Sequence record: MH791400.1
Direction: 5' to 3' (one strand)
Origin: Escherichia phage EcSzw-2
Length of the DNA: 64,000 nucleotides
Shown: positions 2,048 to 51,263 of the stretch, piece after piece
How the letters are laid out: each line of letters opens with the position of its first letter
How positions within the stretch are numbered: the stretch's first letter is position 1
Notes under the pieces: model-generated
What the model saw: the letters and a program-made list of their open reading frames with translations, nothing else
Told to the model about the DNA's origin: nothing
The model's database searches: none
Program-made: the position numbers and the translations under genes

Positions 2048-3120
2048 TAAGGAACCTCTAAATATCCTGAGTTTAAATCATCTACAACGGTATTCAACAA
2101 GTACGCACCGTTTTGCTGTTCTTGGTTAGCATTCTGCTCTTTATCAATTTCCATCTTCTTAATCATGTATTTCAAAGGTGGTTCTTTAGGAGCTACGAAG
2201 TCTCTTGGAATACCAAACATATCATACAATGGTGCAGCGTTATAGTAAACCCACTCATGCAGAAGTTTTGTATTCAAACCAACTACGGCACGACCTTCAG
2301 AGAAAATATAATAAGACCATTTCTCTTCACTTTCAACCACTTCATCAAGAATTACTTTGATTTCTGGAAGAACCTGACGGAAAGCTTCTTGCCACTCTTC
2401 ATCTTTCAAAGTTTCTTTCAGTGCTTCAATGTCAATCTTCGTGTGAAGGATTTCATCAAGCATAATTTTCTGTACTGCCTGAGCAATACCTTGGAACTTA
2501 TCTTGTGCATCAAGTGCAAAGGTACATGCAAAGGATGCCATAAAGGATACGCCTTCCAAGGCTGTTACTGCAAAGAGACCTTTCAAAATCACTTTGTGGA
2601 AGTGTAAAGGGTCTTTCTCAAGCAGTGAATCACGAACATAGCCTAAGCGATAGTTGATACCTTCGTCAAGTAGTTCTTCCAGTGCTCTGTTCACAGTCTT
2701 CAGACGGTCTTGCACAGCAGCATTCTGGTTAATCTCATCAAGGATTGTTTCAGGATTCTTAATACACTGACGAACAATCTCTGAATAAGTCAAGGCATGA
2801 AGGTTCTCAATTTCAGATTGCTTCATAATTGCCGTTGCGTAGATATCATCAGAGATGAATGGTGCAAAAGCAAATGCCAAGCTCTTAGCAACCTGTGTAT
2901 CAGCTTCCCACTGCCACTTAAGAATCTCAAGCATTACACCAGACATGGATTCTGGAACACTTTCAAAGTCTAATCGTGACTGCTCAAATGGGAACTCATC
3001 TTCAGACCAGTCTTGTGCTTTCTGCTGTTTGTACAGTTCAAAGATTTTTGGATAGTGTTTGTTGAGTGAGTCAAAAGTTTTTCGCTCACCACCTAAAAAG
3101 ATTGGATGTTGGTTAATCAT
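2047..3120 (-). CDS. nrdB: ribonucleotide reductase small (beta) subunit NrdB
   Basis: 357 aa ORF immediately downstream of nrdA; motif SFMASFACTFALD resembles the class Ia R2 iron-site helix (T4 NrdB has SFACTFNFH); acidic C-terminal tail. Confidence 0.8.
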   Translation of the reverse strand: MINQHPIFLGGERKTFDSLNKHYPKIFELYKQQKAQDWSEDEFPFEQSRLDFESVPESMSGVMLEILKWQWEADTQVAKSLAFAFAPFISDDIYATAIMKQSEIENLHALTYSEIVRQCIKNPETILDEINQNAAVQDRLKTVNRALEELLDEGINYRLGYVRDSLLEKDPLHFHKVILKGLFAVTALEGVSFMASFACTFALDAQDKFQGIAQAVQKIMLDEILHTKIDIEALKETLKDEEWQEAFRQVLPEIKVILDEVVESEEKWSYYIFSEGRAVVGLNTKLLHEWVYYNAAPLYDMFGIPRDFVAPKEPPLKYMIKKMEIDKEQNANQEQQNGAYLLNTVVDDLNSGYLEVP

Positions 3121-3392
3121 AATGGTAGGTTTCCTGTTTCATAAAATTCTCTGGCTTCTGATGCTGTTAAAACTTGCCAACGGTCAACTTTAAACATATC
3201 AAGAGACCTTGCATAAGTGTTGCTTGGGTTAAAGCAATCAATGTAACGAAGATGCTCTTTCCAAGAACCATCTGGCATTTTAACTTTCAAGTGATGGTCT
3301 GCAATATAATATAAAGACTCTCTTGGTATATAATACAGATACAAAGCACAGTTTGGTTCTCTGTTTCTTGCATCTTGAATGAGTTCTAACAT
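3117..3392 (-). CDS. hypothetical protein (91 aa)
   Basis: ORF track; compact operon position with 4-nt stop/start overlap with nrdB; no motif recognised. Confidence 0.4.
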   Translation of the reverse strand: MLELIQDARNREPNCALYLYYIPRESLYYIADHHLKVKMPDGSWKEHLRYIDCFNPSNTYARSLDMFKVDRWQVLTASEAREFYETGNLPL

Positions 3393-3400
3393 GGTTTCTC

Positions 3401-3422
3401 CAAAAGGGGCTTTGCAGCCCCC
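3401..3422 (-). terminator. hairpin GGGGC-tttgca-GCCCC plus U-run on minus strand
   Basis: Inverted repeat 3406-3421 with A-run 3402-3405 on plus; sits between nrdA stop and next ORF. Confidence 0.45.
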
Positions 3423-5684: not shown

Positions 5685-5709
5685 GAAAAAGGGTCTCCGA
5701 AGAGACCCC
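5685..5709 (-). terminator. rho-independent terminator-like hairpin, second copy of GGGTCTC-cgaa-GAGACCC
   Basis: Same stem-loop as at 1578-1600, preceded on plus by AAAAA (U-run on minus). Confidence 0.55.
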
Positions 5710-5716
5710 TTAGAGA

Positions 5717-6052
5717 TTAAATGCTAAAGATTTGTTTATTTTGCCAAAGTTCATAGAACTTGTTAGAAACCTTAGTCAGTGAAGCTTTTGACATTGCGTT
5801 GCAGTACCACCAACGTTTAGTTTCATCAAACAGTTTTTCAAGGTCTTCGTGCAGGTTGTCTTCCATTCGTGAAATAACAAAGTTACCACGCTTCTTACCA
5901 GTAACACGACCAAACTTGATATCACTTCGTCCTTTACAATCTTCTGTGTACATCACTATGTCACCGAACCGTAAAGGTTTGCCAAACTTATCTACTCCAA
6001 GTTCAACGCCAGCTTTTACATCTTCAATTGTAAGCTTGTTTGCTTTAGACAT
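5717..6052 (-). CDS. hypothetical protein (111 aa)
   Basis: ORF track; no motif recognised. Confidence 0.4.
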   Translation of the reverse strand: MSKANKLTIEDVKAGVELGVDKFGKPLRFGDIVMYTEDCKGRSDIKFGRVTGKKRGNFVISRMEDNLHEDLEKLFDETKRWWYCNAMSKASLTKVSNKFYELWQNKQIFSI

Positions 6053-6377
6053 GATATTTATCCAAGTTTCGTTTCAGGTAAAGCCACCCATCATCAGTGC
6101 GTTCAACACCCATGAACAGTGGAGCCGTTACAACCTTTCCAAACGTATTACGATGCTGACAAATCTCATAAGAATACGTTTTCTCAATGTCCAGGCCATA
6201 TTTGAAAAGAACTGCTTTCAAGACCTGTTCATTATCCAGTAAAGTTTCTGGTGTCTCTCCATATTTTGCTAACAGTGAATCACTCATAAACACTGTCATA
6301 GAGAGATTATAGTTTGAGAAATGGCTCTTTGGAGCCACCTCTTCAGTATTAATGTTCTGTGAATCCATTATAACCAA
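6045..6377 (-). CDS. hypothetical protein (110 aa)
   Basis: ORF track; overlaps neighbours by a few nt as in phage operons. Confidence 0.4.
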   Translation of the reverse strand: MVIMDSQNINTEEVAPKSHFSNYNLSMTVFMSDSLLAKYGETPETLLDNEQVLKAVLFKYGLDIEKTYSYEICQHRNTFGKVVTAPLFMGVERTDDGWLYLKRNLDKYHV

Positions 6378-7104
6378 CCCCTTTTAACCAATTCTTCAGG
6401 TTATTTGCATCATAGTTCAGTTTCGGGTATGAGGTCACATGGAACTTCTCACCGTCATAGTAAACAATATCTGCAAGCCATAATCCGTTTTCTCGGCAGA
6501 AGTCTTTGTCTGCTTTTGAACTGATTGGTCGAACTTCTGTGAAGTCACTCAATCCAAGGTCTTTCAAACTTCCTACAAGACCTTTACAGATAACGCATGT
6601 GTCAGATGTTACCACGAATAATTCTTTGCTTTCAAGTTCCGCAATGAACTCTGCAAGCTGTACTTTAGGAAGATTAGACTGCTTCATAACCTTCTTATCA
6701 GACTCACGGATAATGGCGTACCATTCTTTTCCATCAATCATTGAGGCACGTACATGACATTCATCACCAGTATACTTCTCGATATCTGCAAGACGCTTCA
6801 AAGCTTCTTCGTAGTTATCGGTATACTTCAGGTTGTTATTCTCACAGACTGCTTTCATAGCTCCGTCATGGTCATGCTGTGAAAGGTAAATCAGTCCATC
6901 AAGAACATACTGTAAATCCGCCTGAGCATCAAGAGCCTCAATAGGGTCTTTTTCATCAACAGCTTTTAAAAGCTCTTTGGCCTCTTCTAACATACAAAGT
7001 GCTTGGCTACGCATTGAAGACCAGTACTCAGGTGTATAAGGAGTCAACGGGGTTTTACCACAACGCTGATTCCAAGTTAAAACGGATTCTCTGGAATTAA
7101 ACAT
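6349..7104 (-). CDS. hypothetical protein (251 aa); possible MazG-like NTP-pyrophosphohydrolase-type helical N-domain plus C-terminal CxxC region
   Basis: N-half has EExxE/D-rich helices (LEEAKELLKAVDE...EALDAQADLQYVLDG) reminiscent of MazG/dCTPase-like domains; C-half has CVICKG. Assignment is tentative. Confidence 0.35.
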   Translation of the reverse strand: MFNSRESVLTWNQRCGKTPLTPYTPEYWSSMRSQALCMLEEAKELLKAVDEKDPIEALDAQADLQYVLDGLIYLSQHDHDGAMKAVCENNNLKYTDNYEEALKRLADIEKYTGDECHVRASMIDGKEWYAIIRESDKKVMKQSNLPKVQLAEFIAELESKELFVVTSDTCVICKGLVGSLKDLGLSDFTEVRPISSKADKDFCRENGLWLADIVYYDGEKFHVTSYPKLNYDANNLKNWLKGVGYNGFTEH

Positions 7105-7331
7105 TAAACCTCCTGAAACAGTTTCTGCTGAGACTCAATATAATCCAGTCGGCCTTTCAGTTCAACACGTTTGTTAATCAGGTGCTGAATCTGGGACTCA
7201 AGAGCCTCCATTTCGGACTCCGTAGCTTCTTTAGCTTTGACAATTGCATCTTTCAGTGCTGCAATGTGACTGTCAATCTTAGCTACGTGGTCATTATTAA
7301 TTTTGTTAAATATCATCTTATTCTCTCTCAT
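7104..7331 (-). CDS. small coiled-coil hypothetical protein (75 aa)
   Basis: ORF track; heptad-like charged sequence. Confidence 0.3.
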   Translation of the reverse strand: MRENKMIFNKINNDHVAKIDSHIAALKDAIVKAKEATESEMEALESQIQHLINKRVELKGRLDYIESQQKLFQEV

Positions 7332-7818
7332 TAAGTTTCATGATTTTATGGATTCTCTTCTCAGCATCTTCATAAGTCTCTTTAGTCAGAAACTTGATTG
7401 CTGCAATGTTTGCATTGTAGAAGAGTCGAAGCTTGGAGTCAATCCTTTTTGTCATGACGTCAAACTTATGTTGAAGGTTAGCTTCTCCGTAGACCAACCC
7501 ACCTCGCGTATAATAAGTTTGCACAATATAGAAGTCAAACTCTTTTTCACCGAAAGTTTCAATATCTTTCTTAATGTACTCAGAAGAGGTCTGGTAAACC
7601 TTCCAGTCACTCTCTTTTGTCACAATCTTACGTCTGGTCTTTCCAGCTACTTTCTTCTTGGTGACATTGTTAAACTGCTTCTTACCCAAATAGTACTGTC
7701 CAGTCTTTTTGCAGTACACTAAGTAGACAAACCCAAAGTATTTAGTTGGGTCAATTTCTCCACAAAGTGAAATCCAATGTCCATATTCAGGGCAATTACC
7801 AAAACCTTTAATCTTCAT
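7318..7818 (-). CDS. putative GIY-YIG family homing endonuclease (166 aa)
   Basis: Motif GFVYLVYCKKTGQYYLGKK matches GIY-(10-11 aa)-YIG spacing, followed by basic residues; adjacent to an HNH endonuclease gene. Confidence 0.5.
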   Translation of the reverse strand: MKIKGFGNCPEYGHWISLCGEIDPTKYFGFVYLVYCKKTGQYYLGKKQFNNVTKKKVAGKTRRKIVTKESDWKVYQTSSEYIKKDIETFGEKEFDFYIVQTYYTRGGLVYGEANLQHKFDVMTKRIDSKLRLFYNANIAAIKFLTKETYEDAEKRIHKIMKLNERE

Positions 7819-8339
7819 TCATAAGTTTCTCCATGATTTGTGAACTCTCTATGAAGTTCTTCTCTTTTCTTTCTGACTGCTTCTGCTGCATCAGTAATAT
7901 TTTCAAAGACCCCTAAATGATAGCACACCTTTAGGTGTTTGACTTGAGCAACCCACTTTCCAGTATGCTTGTGGAAATAGACACCCTTAATCCCAGATTT
8001 ATTATCTTTCCTTTTTGCAGCATTACAATTATTTTGTGACCTGCTGCAAGCCCTGAGATTGCCAAACCAGTTTTCATCCCTTACACCATTACGATGGTCA
8101 ACATATTTAGGGATGTAACCAAGCATATACAAGAAAGCAAGCCTGTGTGCTGCATAACACTTACTAAATAACTTTATGTACACATATCCAGAGTGGTGTT
8201 TTACCCCAGCTACAGAGCCAGCCTTTACTTTGCTTGACCTATCCACAATCCAAGTAAAGACCCCTGTTTCGGGGTCATAGTTTAGATATTCTTTAAGAGT
8301 TTGCTGAGTCAACATTTGGAGTCCACCCATACTTCTCAA
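7815..8339 (-). CDS. HNH homing endonuclease with AP2-type DNA-binding domain (174 aa)
   Basis: HNH core (AHRLAF...YVDHRNGVRDENWFGNLRACSRSQNN) and AP2-like segment (SGIKGVYFHKHTGKWVAQVKH...YHLGVFENITDAAEAVRKKREEL); its 3' end overlaps the start of the upstream exonuclease gene by 47 nt. Confidence 0.65.
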   Translation of the reverse strand: MRSMGGLQMLTQQTLKEYLNYDPETGVFTWIVDRSSKVKAGSVAGVKHHSGYVYIKLFSKCYAAHRLAFLYMLGYIPKYVDHRNGVRDENWFGNLRACSRSQNNCNAAKRKDNKSGIKGVYFHKHTGKWVAQVKHLKVCYHLGVFENITDAAEAVRKKREELHREFTNHGETYE

Positions 8340-9351
8340 ACGTAAAGTCGTCTTTCTTATTTCTTTCTTGATAAGCTAAGAAGAAATGCTGCTTCATCAA
8401 CTCTAAAGGTGTTCTGGTGATTGTTTGACCATCCCATGATACATATGTATATGAATCTTTCTTAGCATACAACTCGTATATTGCATCAAGACACTCTTTG
8501 TATGTTGTCTTACCCTCTAAGGCTTTCATGACAGCAACTTTGCCAACACCCTTTAGTCCAAAGTAGTTGTCTGCTACATCACCTGCTACAGCTTGATAGC
8601 AGAGAAATTTAAAACCTACTCCAACAGTCTTTTTAGCTTTCGGCTTAGACTTGATAGGGCAATCCCAAATATCACCTACGTTACCGTCTGCAATGAAAAT
8701 CAGAGGGGCTTTCTCGTAAGTCATATCAATACAGTAAGTTCCTTCCGCTTGGCGAAGGTCTTTATCAATGCTCATAAGAGCAGCCTTCTTACCCATCTTC
8801 TCAGCTTTTGCAATAACGATTGAGTCAGCTTCAAACCCATTAAGTAAGAGCTTAAACTCAGGTCGTGACAGAAGATACTCACGACAAGCAACTAAATGTG
8901 TAGGGGTTACTGATTCTTTACGGTTACCTTGATACTGGTGTTCAAGACCTTTAATGTCTTTGTGTTTGTGTACACCTTTCTCTGTGAGGTATCCCATCCA
9001 AGTTCGTTCTTTACCAACAACCTTCAACCATTCCTGAAGAACTTGTTGAGTTGCCATAATAGCTTCTTTTTCACTCTTGGCTTCTTTCCAAGATTGTCTT
9101 TCCCATTCATCTTCATCGAATGCAAGGCCAAGTTCCTCTGTCAGAACTCTCTGGTCAGATAACCATTGATTAGCATCTTTAGCACTCTCAAAAGCATCAG
9201 ACTCTTCAGCAGTGAGTTTATTCACATACTTGTACTTTGCTTTCTCAACGACACAGGCTCCCTTGTAAGCGATACTGTCAGAGTCAATAAAGACATGTGT
9301 CACAGTATCTGGGAGTTTTGTTAATGTGTACTTTTCCATTTGTATCTCCAA
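8293..9351 (-). CDS. 5'-3' exonuclease / flap endonuclease (RNase H-like, FEN family)
   Basis: 352 aa; N-terminal acidic cluster FIDSDSIAY and helix-hairpin-helix-like GDVADNYFGLKGVGKVAVMKAL typical of T4 RNase H / T5 D15-type nucleases. Confidence 0.6.
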   Translation of the reverse strand: MEIQMEKYTLTKLPDTVTHVFIDSDSIAYKGACVVEKAKYKYVNKLTAEESDAFESAKDANQWLSDQRVLTEELGLAFDEDEWERQSWKEAKSEKEAIMATQQVLQEWLKVVGKERTWMGYLTEKGVHKHKDIKGLEHQYQGNRKESVTPTHLVACREYLLSRPEFKLLLNGFEADSIVIAKAEKMGKKAALMSIDKDLRQAEGTYCIDMTYEKAPLIFIADGNVGDIWDCPIKSKPKAKKTVGVGFKFLCYQAVAGDVADNYFGLKGVGKVAVMKALEGKTTYKECLDAIYELYAKKDSYTYVSWDGQTITRTPLELMKQHFFLAYQERNKKDDFTFEKYGWTPNVDSANS

Positions 9352-9355
9352 TACG

Positions 9356-9383
9356 AAAAAGCCCCATACTAAGTACAGGGCTT
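9356..9383 (-). terminator. hairpin plus U-run on minus strand
   Basis: AGCCC...GGGCT inverted repeat followed on minus by UUUU (plus AAAAA 9356-9360). Confidence 0.45.
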
Positions 9384-9401
9384 TGTAGTAACTACTGAGA
9401 A

Positions 9402-10253
9402 TTAATCTTCAGTATCGAAATCTTCTTCGTCGTCGTCATCTGGGTCTGGCATATCATCGTCGTCATCGTCAGAGTTTGTATCTTCAGAATCCTTCGCATC
9501 TTCTTCGGTGATTTCACCGTTATCTTCAACGCCATCCAGACCAAGCAGAGCCAGTTCATCTTCATCAAGTTCAGGCTCACCGTTACCACCTGTACCACCA
9601 GTGTACGGAACCAGAGTATCAATGATAAACTGTTCCTGAATCGGCTTAGTCAGAACGTTGCTTTCAAAAGTGTAGAAGTGAGTTGCAAGAATCACACTAC
9701 CAAATGAACCGTTACCGACTGCGATATCTGGGTGAATAACATCATAAGTTTTGTCGTCATCGTGTTTGTCAGAATGTTGAGCCTTGATTTTCTTCATCGG
9801 CTGTTTAACTGCAACACGCTTACCGTTAACTTCTTCAATCAGCATAACAGGGAATGACTGTTTCGCTGTCCAGACTGCACCATCTTTATAAGCAGCAGCA
9901 CGACTTACTTTCAGAATGTGATAAGTGTCTGCTTCGAATGGTGGTTTGCAACCAAACTTCTCTTCGAAGTCATCTGCATCAACTGCTTCAGTTGTAACCT
10001 TATCCCAACCGTCAGGATTCTTTTTAGACTTGGTGAACTCTTTGAAGAGTTTGTTACCGTCTTTTGCCAGAATCGAAACGCTGTAGTTGCAGTCCTTGCC
10101 TGGGAATTTCTTATCAACTGACTTACCTTTTCCCGGACGTGGGATAGTATTCAGGTAGTAGAACCAAACATCTTTCAGCAAATAACGCAGAGTCTGACGT
10201 TCAGTACCGTTGTATTTTTCTACCGGAGATTTCATTTTAACAACTTTAGACAT
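9402..10253 (-). CDS. putative ssDNA-binding protein with acidic C-terminal tail; ORF track extends to 10319 but start at 10253 (MSKVVKMK...) has the better SD
   Basis: Strongly acidic C-terminus (DDDDDDMPDPDDDDEEDFDTED) as in T4 gp32 / T7 gp2.5; GAGGA 8 nt upstream of ATG at 10251-10253; sits inside the replication cluster. Family not confirmed. Confidence 0.4.
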   Translation of the reverse strand: MSKVVKMKSPVEKYNGTERQTLRYLLKDVWFYYLNTIPRPGKGKSVDKKFPGKDCNYSVSILAKDGNKLFKEFTKSKKNPDGWDKVTTEAVDADDFEEKFGCKPPFEADTYHILKVSRAAAYKDGAVWTAKQSFPVMLIEEVNGKRVAVKQPMKKIKAQHSDKHDDDKTYDVIHPDIAVGNGSFGSVILATHFYTFESNVLTKPIQEQFIIDTLVPYTGGTGGNGEPELDEDELALLGLDGVEDNGEITEEDAKDSEDTNSDDDDDDMPDPDDDDEEDFDTED

Positions 10254-10472
10254 TCTTAAATCCTCTTTCTCAAAATTATTTCTTTCAAACTTGAAGGAGT
10301 ACAATCTTACAGACTTCATACTCCCTTGTCAAACACTTTTAAGCAGATTTTTTAGCTGCTTTACGTGCTGTCTTACCAGTGCGAACACGTTTTGCTTCGT
10401 AGTGTGCAGCAGATTTACCAGCAGTTGCTTTCAGTGAATCGCCAAATACTTTTTCAAACGCTTTAGAATGTT

Positions 10473-10754
10473 TCATACAACTCTCCGATAAATTTCGTAT
10501 TCAAATGTTTTGTCAGTCAACTTAAACATATATCCAGTATCATTGTCAACAGAAACTAAGATTCCATCAAGGCCAATCTCAAGCTCTCTGTGCTCTAACT
10601 CAACCGTATGCCCTTCGTTGATGAGTACTTTACAGAAATCGTCTATACGAGTCAAGCACTCTTTTTTAAATTCTACTGAATTTGTTTCTTCATAGAAGGG
10701 CGTAAAGCCCTCCTTAAGATACGCATCAGTCAGTTTCAAAAGGGCAGTCATCAT
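10473..10754 (-). CDS. hypothetical protein (93 aa)
   Basis: ORF track; overlaps stop of primase-helicase gene. Confidence 0.4.
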   Translation of the reverse strand: MMTALLKLTDAYLKEGFTPFYEETNSVEFKKECLTRIDDFCKVLINEGHTVELEHRELEIGLDGILVSVDNDTGYMFKLTDKTFEYEIYRRVV

Positions 10755-50810: not shown

Positions 50811-51263
50811 TTAAATCAAATGTCTTGAGAATTGACTATGACAATTTGGACACAAGAATCTTAAGTTTTCTTTTCTATCGTCTAACCAGTTTTCGTTGAT
50901 ATGGTCAACATCAAGTGTTAGTGGTTTACCTAACCATTCTGGTTGCTGTCCACACTTAGAGCATTTGTATTCAACACCAGAAGCTATTAAAGCCCTTCTA
51001 AGTTGTGTTGACCTTGCTCTTTCACCTGATTCACGAAGAATCAAGATTTCTTCAGGCTTTCTTTTTGGTAAAGTTTTAACCTTACCTGCCTTTTGTCCAA
51101 GGAAATGAGAAGTATCTAACTCAAACTTCTCTATAACACGTTTCAAGTGTGACTGAGAACCACCTGCTGGTTTTCTTCCAAGCTTGATAAGTACTTCTCT
51201 AAATGATACTGATTCTTTCACTAAAGGTTCAAGAACCTCTTTAGTCAAACTTCTACGTGTCAT
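50811..51263 (-). CDS. HNH homing endonuclease (150 aa) inside the tRNA array
   Basis: C-terminal HNH zinc motif CSKCGQQPEW...LDVDHINENWLDDRKENLRFLCPNCH; stop 50811-50813 two nt from the neighbouring tRNA. Confidence 0.7.
   Translation of the reverse strand: MTRRSLTKEVLEPLVKESVSFREVLIKLGRKPAGGSQSHLKRVIEKFELDTSHFLGQKAGKVKTLPKRKPEEILILRESGERARSTQLRRALIASGVEYKCSKCGQQPEWLGKPLTLDVDHINENWLDDRKENLRFLCPNCHSQFSRHLI

Follow-up and report, generated by a model that had tools for sequence, protein, structure and literature searches.

Free-standing HNH genes have been reported in Felix O1-like phages since 2010, when six such sequences were described in Felix O1 (Whichard et al., 2010; PMC3185647). A family of homing endonucleases that combines an HNH with an AP2 domain has also been described, and such genes tend to lie in clusters close to essential genes and at recombination boundaries (PMC10448857). 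Barth et al. (2023) cite the HNH(HNH_3)-AP2 family of phages and cyanobacteria as previously identified, with the 'IPA-HNH' of ICP1 being a divergent branch (PMC10448857). Here we analysed a 64,000-nucleotide (nt) stretch of Escherichia phage EcSzw-2 (MH791400.1), referred to as the window, in which an HNH-AP2 gene and a GIY-YIG gene lie side by side next to an exonuclease gene. Probably a single selfish HNH-AP2 cassette has entered the junction of two resident genes that are translationally coupled, and the GIY-YIG gene, a core gene that was already in place, took no part in the event. An earlier sequence-only reading of this DNA had proposed tandem homing genes wedged into the replication operon, which proved right for the HNH gene, with its empty sites, discordant alleles and co-conversion, and wrong for the GIY-YIG gene, which about 297 of 301 records carry at one and the same position. 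At the HNH locus the finding holds up, but it is an ordinary one of a kind that was already known, and its discovery value is small, as both genes are also annotated in GenBank relatives: records of CHB7, Moogle/Mijalis, Sf14 and others carry a 'GIY-YIG homing endonuclease' and an 'HNH endonuclease (AP2/ERF)' at the locus. The new points are modest: the insertion is resolved to the base, co-conversion tracts are described, the GIY-YIG gene is recognised as a core gene with a truncated architecture and a wrong label, and a conserved hairpin is reported.

Positions 5700-10400 of the window match Escherichia phage EcSzw_1 (MH791413.1; Ounavirinae, Suspvirus) at 100% identity, and subtracting 22185 from a position in the EcSzw_1 record gives the position in the window. 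A T5-like origin, which the RNR, exonuclease and primase genes might suggest, was rejected on the strength of this match to an Ounavirinae phage. The two open reading frames (ORFs) that had been recognised at 7318-7818 (166 amino acids, aa) and 7815-8339 (174 aa from a TTG) are both present on the minus strand. Starting at the first in-frame TTG (8339) the HNH ORF gives 174 aa, and from ATG 8315 it gives 166 aa. A Shine-Dalgarno-like motif (GGTGGA) 6 nt upstream, the N-terminal consensus of the family (MLTQ...) and the GenBank annotation all agree on ATG 8315, and the gene is therefore placed at 7815..8315 on the minus strand. The ORF matched Pfam PF13392 (HNH_3) at 5.2e-11 with 42.4 bits (cutoff 24.8). 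Its AP2 domain was partial by Pfam (23.7 bits, under the cutoff of 33.3), and the AP2 fold was confirmed on a structure model with a predicted local distance difference test (pLDDT) score of 91, so that the original HNH-AP2 call was upheld. Residues ~1-100 form an I-HmuI-like N-terminal region with the HNH (H-N-N) motif, in which the conserved His and Asn of the beta-beta-alpha-metal type are present, and residues ~107-160 form the AP2-type DNA-binding domain. More than 600 homologs were detected at E<=1e-10, many of which reach the Pfam AP2 threshold. NCBIfam held no model for either the HNH-AP2 or the GIY-YIG protein.

A sequence search of the HNH-AP2 protein against solved structures gave a weak match to I-HmuI alone (E 0.2). 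I-HmuI binds DNA through NUMOD/helix-turn-helix (HTH) modules. Moreover, I-HmuI is intron-encoded (Bacillus phage SPO1, PDB 1U3E), whereas the EcSzw_1 HNH gene is free-standing and carries an AP2 domain. It occupies its own frame, and the exonuclease ORF is intact both when the site is filled (348 aa) and when it is empty (346 aa). In its N-terminal HNH and C-terminal AP2 domain, its length of about 165 aa, its sporadic occurrence beside essential replication genes and its position at a recombination boundary, the EcSzw_1 gene resembles the described HNH-AP2 family; it differs in nothing essential, except that the EcSzw_1 allele has a conserved 5' hairpin that is specific to its lineage. The HNH alleles are under purifying selection, with ratios of nonsynonymous to synonymous substitution rates (dN/dS) of 0.10-0.18 in all comparisons.

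The 5' end of the HNH gene overlaps the 3' end of the exonuclease gene by 23 nt, counted from ATG 8315, and its stop codon overlaps the GIY-YIG start by 4 nt (ATGA). The sequence-only reading had this polarity reversed, with the HNH 3' end over the exonuclease 5' end, and listed GIY-YIG before HNH, although HNH comes first in transcription; the overlap of 47 nt given there is obtained only from the upstream-most TTG. Alignment of the junctions of nine HNH-positive and seven HNH-negative phages (16 in total) from the genera Suspvirus, Mooglevirus and Felixounavirus showed that the cassette comprises 492 base pairs (bp), at 7825..8316 on the minus strand, and that its junctions are base-identical across the three genera. 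EcSzw_1, CHB7 and ESh22 have the segment, whereas mistaenkt and six other phages are empty and have 2 nt in its place. The empty junction reads ..TTGGGAGCC(NN)TATGAATGAAGATT, and the filled junction reads ..TGGAC(T/A)CCAAATGTT..[HNH]..GGAGAA(A/G)CTTATGAATGAAGATT. In mistaenkt, which belongs to the same genus and lacks the HNH gene, the exonuclease gene overlaps the GIY-YIG gene directly by 11 nt. Filling of the site changes the exonuclease tail from EPVMNED* to TPNVDSANS*, the last six codons and the stop being provided by the HNH cassette. Of 51 related records sampled at even spacing, about 18, or roughly a third, had a filled site.

The same pattern could in principle reflect decay, with the HNH gene being ancestral at this site and repeatedly deleted. 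Filled sites do occur in all three genera, and the HNH-less phages JK55 and VpaE1_ev108 resemble HNH-positive backgrounds minus the gene. Independent deletions, however, would not yield one base-precise junction and a restored EPVMNED* tail in three genera, the allele classes cross genera and disagree with the flanking phylogeny, and in both EcSzw_1 and the metagenomic Suspvirus contig L009 foreign tracts flank a gene whose alleles are under purifying selection. We consider this explanation very unlikely.

At least three HNH allele classes were distinguished, and each of them spans more than one genus. The EcSzw_1 protein shares 78% aa identity with that of the Mooglevirus ESh22 and 75% with that of Felix O1, but only 52% with that of its congener CHB7. 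We found no sequenced phage that could have donated the EcSzw_1 allele, the best match in the phage genome collection being 78% identical at the aa level; a 98% identical copy is present in one metagenome, on the sister contig L009. Sliding-window comparison showed EcSzw_1 to be 95-100% identical to its congeners over 7.7 kb save for two tracts that directly flank the cassette. The tract on the exonuclease side is about 280 bp long (8317..8600, minus strand) and is 70-79% identical to congeners and 86-88% identical to HNH-positive phages of other genera. The tract on the GIY-YIG side is shorter, about 170 bp (7650..7824, minus strand), with 87-90% identity to congeners and 98% to L009. Contig L009 has the same HNH allele (98-100%) and the inner tract in common with EcSzw_1, and the outer breakpoint of its foreign tract on the exonuclease side lies at ~8950, against ~8600 in EcSzw_1. 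Variable-length co-conversion of this kind is the footprint expected of homing. With precise empty sites, alleles discordant with the phylogeny and flanking tracts, the proposal that the HNH-AP2 gene is an intronless homing-endonuclease insertion was borne out.

In the flanks, perfect segregation with the presence of the HNH gene was seen only at positions 8332, 8322, 8321, 8320 and 8316, all of which are at most 17 nt from the left junction. They turn GGGAGCC (empty) into GGAC(T/A)CC (filled), and this is the sole consistent sequence difference between filled and empty sites. The target of the HNH enzyme would probably include the GC-rich GGGAGCC patch, which fits the preference for GC-rich sequences that has been reported for AP2 domains (PMC10448857).

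These observations can be brought together in a model. In the ancestral empty state the exonuclease and GIY-YIG genes would have been translationally coupled through their 11-nt overlap. The cassette would supply the exonuclease with a different 3' tail and stop codon and the HNH gene with a Shine-Dalgarno motif and ATG, and its ATGA overlap would re-establish the coupling to the GIY-YIG gene; with such signals the HNH gene would be expressed by read-through of the replication operon. A promoter of its own was considered for the HNH gene and rejected, as sigma-70-like matches were weak and at chance frequency. On co-infection with an HNH-less relative, the AP2 domain would bind the uninterrupted junction region and the HNH motif would then nick or cut close by. 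This motif has the H-N-N form that is found in I-HmuI, a nickase. Recombinational repair off the HNH-positive genome would finally copy the cassette, with a variable length of flank, into the recipient. The data show the domains and folds, the boundaries of the insertion, the pattern of presence and absence, the discordance of the alleles, the co-conversion tracts and the universality and constraint of the GIY-YIG gene, whereas the cleavage site, the choice between nicking and cutting, the current activity of the HNH enzyme and the role of the GIY-YIG protein are what we infer.

The arrangement is similar to that of MobE and the Seg proteins of T4, where a free-standing gene also lies amid conserved nucleotide-metabolism and replication genes, and where spread by gene conversion with co-converted flanks has been inferred (PMC2790892, PMC2988022). 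It differs in belonging to another phage family and in that the EcSzw_1 insertion is seamless in a coupled junction and rewrites the last codons of the upstream gene. With its empty and filled sites, three allele classes and variable tracts, the locus offers a clean case of homing in nature and could be used for crosses in therapeutically relevant phages. Phylogenies of the Ounavirinae should be built without the 3' end of the exonuclease gene and the 5' end of the GIY-YIG gene.

The GIY-YIG gene (7318..7818, minus strand; 166 aa) encodes a SegE-type catalytic domain only. Its product matched Pfam PF19835 (SegE_GIY-YIG) at 3.2e-27 with 95.6 bits (cutoff 25), which settled a call that had been flagged as resting on one motif, and hhalign gave a probability of 94% against T4 SegE, a member of the same Pfam family. 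No similarity to I-TevI was found at the profile level, and a sequence search against solved structures gave no meaningful match. T4 SegE has 205 aa, with about 100 residues past the nuclease domain, whereas the Ounavirinae protein consists of the nuclease domain and is universal and syntenic. By Pfam at E<=0.1 no second, DNA-binding domain (NUMOD, HTH or zinc finger) was detected, and the structure model showed one domain plus a terminal helix. The additional features of the protein are an N-terminal HW motif, a basic beta-hairpin insert and one C-terminal helix. A zinc site formed by C9, H14 and C19 in the N-terminus was considered and rejected, as the cysteines vary among homologs.

The gene is single-copy in each genome (tblastn), and it was found at >=60% aa identity in 297 records, as compared with 301 records matching the DNA of the locus. 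It follows the exonuclease gene at the same position from Felix O1 to Erwinia phage phiEa21-4, Kolesnikvirus included. Synteny comparison, which had been suggested as a way to find the empty site, recovered that of the HNH gene in relatives; for the GIY-YIG gene none was seen in ~300 Ounavirinae genomes, so that the sporadic distribution of a homing gene is lacking. Identity to the phiEa21-4 orthologs was 60.6% for GIY-YIG, 55.8% for the exonuclease and 36% for MazG, which places GIY-YIG among the best conserved genes of the block, and with dN/dS of 0.04-0.12 it is as constrained as the flanking exonuclease gene. No recombination tract is centred on it: over 7320-7650 the identity to congeners was 98-100%, and the sole dip adjoins the HNH cassette. 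Without a DNA-binding domain, a sporadic distribution or a conversion tract of its own, the gene fails three defining features of active homing-endonuclease genes, and being universal and constrained it does not form a tandem pair of invading elements with the HNH gene. Judging from these comparisons, the GIY-YIG gene is a descendant of Seg-type homing nucleases that is now a fixed, single-copy, constrained core gene with the catalytic domain only.

The alternative that both genes are tandem homing invaders, the GIY-YIG gene being older, fixed in the Ounavirinae and still homing or excluding markers against distant phages, is in our opinion unlikely. It draws on the SegE-type catalytic domain, as the T4 record annotates SegE as a site-specific homing endonuclease, on the label 'GIY-YIG homing endonuclease' given by GenBank submitters, and on the reported co-location of different homing-endonuclease classes (PMC10448857). 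An exhaustive profile search with the GIY-YIG protein yielded 2,445 representatives at E<=0.001; among the best 150 of these, 61 are no longer than 185 aa and 77 have 220 aa or more, and most of ten long members scanned have NUMOD3, NUMOD1, I-HmuI-NUMOD-like or HTH modules C-terminal to the nuclease domain. The two-domain homing architecture is thus present in about half of the closest representatives, which also speaks for a homing enzyme. Against it stand the lack of an empty site in ~300 genomes while neighbouring genes diverge to 36-60% aa identity across genera, a dN/dS as low as that of the exonuclease, the missing DNA-binding domain, and the 98-100% identity to congeners over the 3' two thirds of the gene with no tract centred on it.

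The core status of the GIY-YIG gene suggests a co-opted nuclease. One could imagine a domesticated enzyme that partners the gp6-like exonuclease, e.g. by nicking host or replicating DNA for degradation or resection, and that would feed the nucleotide module of MazG, ribonucleotide reductase (RNR) and deoxynucleoside monophosphate kinase or recombination-dependent replication, by analogy with T7 gp3 plus gp6 and with T4 EndoII; we regard this as a real possibility, though one that falls short of being probable. The ancestral 11-nt translational coupling to the exonuclease, the location in a nucleotide-metabolism block (exonuclease, MazG, nrdA/B), the core-gene behaviour and strong constraint, and a catalytic domain without additions, like that of the 144-aa product of T4 denA, are all in line with such a role. 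T4 endonuclease II (EndoII, DenA) is likewise a small single-domain GIY-YIG nuclease beside nrd genes, and a functional analogy is possible, but homology to it was rejected because no sequence relationship could be detected (hhalign probability 0.7%). The case for domestication is made purely from context and conservation. Furthermore, the phage is not known to have a DNA modification that would shield its own genome from a non-specific nickase, and the term 'host DNA' never occurs in the Felix O1 genome paper.

Homologs consisting of the catalytic domain only (~130-150 aa, 30-38% identity) were found as single-copy genes in about 400 cyanomyophage records. In Synechococcus phage ACG-2014f, the one locus that was inspected, the homolog (2974-3414) lies ~1.7 kb downstream of nrdA/nrdB, and such a position near nrdA/nrdB also favours domestication. 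This record, many RefSeq phage records (Felix O1, wV8, Moogle, Sf13 and others, with hundreds of cyanophage records among them) and PHROG 447 give the GIY-YIG gene the name 'NAD synthetase'. No NAD synthase domain was matched by Pfam at E<=0.1 or by NCBIfam, GIY-YIG being the sole domain, and the label therefore looks like a propagated misannotation.

Several points weigh against a single HNH-AP2 invasion next to a resident GIY-YIG core gene. The HNH-less Felixounaviruses JK55 and VpaE1_ev108 carry exonuclease 3' sequence of the HNH-positive type (TTCTTCTTAGC variant) up to ~20 nt from the junction, and loss of the cassette or crossovers very near the junction therefore probably also occur; gain and loss cannot be assigned for each lineage. 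For every allele at this site the HNH activity and its target are putative, and the HNH gene could be a currently inactive hitch-hiker that has spread through ordinary recombination. As to the GIY-YIG protein, no counterpart of the canonical catalytic Arg was identified and the AlphaFold2 model of the catalytic helix region was poor (pLDDT <50 for residues 106-148). Its universality is also compatible with a fixed homing enzyme that has been kept for competition against other phage groups. Apart from this, VpaE1_ev108 differs from VpaE1 both in the HNH gene, which is absent in the former and present in the latter, and in the exonuclease 3' end, and it is therefore a recombinant in this region.

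Within the 5' end of the HNH gene we observed a perfect 6-bp GC-rich hairpin, GACCCCGAAACAGGGGTC, followed by TTTACTT (8259..8276, minus strand), which is a terminator-like match with a folding energy (dG) of -11.4 kcal/mol. It lies 17 nt past the exonuclease stop, within HNH codons 14-19 (DPETGV). Codons 13-20 are codon-identical in seven non-redundant alleles, as against just 2 of the 36 degenerate, aa-invariant codons of the central part of the gene (synonymous-site test, p = 7e-5), and codons nearer to the junction than the hairpin vary. The same 18-20 nt recur elsewhere in Felix O1-like contigs, in HNH-AP2 paralogs at other loci. Among 132 IMG/VR instances of this peptide motif, the codon choice was free in other phage groups, and the hairpin was accordingly rejected as a general trait of the HNH-AP2 family. 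Its conservation is thus lineage-specific and at the level of nucleotides. RNA folding of the exonuclease/HNH junction was not compelling apart from the hairpin (z = -1.9). A reasonable guess would be that the hairpin is an attenuator or terminator that limits expression of the selfish gene. A combined explanation, in which the GIY-YIG protein is a Seg-type nuclease minus its DNA-binding domain that works as a core enzyme with the gp6-like exonuclease in DNA breakdown or recombination-dependent replication, and in which the hairpin is a cis-regulatory attenuator of HNH-AP2 genes placed after an upstream stop, is tentative and on balance rather doubtful.

The window contains a third nuclease gene at 50811..51263 (minus strand), as the sequence-only reading had counted. 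It is annotated as a 'hypothetical protein' and belongs to an unrelated HNH subfamily of the PF01844 type (Pfam 24.1 bits, cutoff 21.4). The gene is flanked by tRNA-Leu and tRNA-Ser within a cluster of 23 tRNA genes, and in this it resembles T4 segB, which is also found within a tRNA cluster. It was present in 9 of 258 related records, the others showing a gap of ~460 bp, and it is therefore sporadic as well. Scans with hidden Markov models (HMMs) over all 383 stop-to-stop segments of the window detected no additional gene of the three nuclease types (HNH-AP2, GIY-YIG and PF01844 HNH).

Short identity dips were also seen elsewhere among the otherwise 95-100% identical Suspvirus genomes. The identity of L009 fell to 77-87% at 5790-5890, that of EcSzw_1 to 88% against congeners at 8800-8850, and that of CHB7 to 88-92% at ~10570 (window ~10530-10620). 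These dips may be further recombination patches without an annotated nuclease gene.

The minus strand carries every gene from 3.4 to 14.9 kb. In the order of transcription, a primase/helicase gene is followed by three small ORFs, a 283-aa ORF and the exonuclease gene, and further downstream HNH (8315..7815) and GIY-YIG (7818..7318) are followed by a 70-aa ORF, MazG, two small ORFs and nrdA. This gene order of the locus is kept in Felix O1 and Erwinia phage phiEa21-4. The exonuclease gene (8293..9339, minus strand; stop codon at 8295-8293; GenBank CDS EcSzw1_54) is a resident replication and nucleotide-metabolism gene of the T7 gp6-like, PIN/FEN-like type. Its 'FEN-type' label is based on sub-threshold matches to 5'-3' exonucleases in Pfam and NCBIfam together with a match to PHROG 107 at 2e-64. 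Between the 283-aa ORF and the exonuclease gene, a strong hairpin that resembles an intrinsic terminator was observed at 9358-9384 (minus strand), with a 12-bp stem followed by a T run, and the block of exonuclease, (HNH), GIY-YIG and MazG genes may therefore begin a separate transcription unit.

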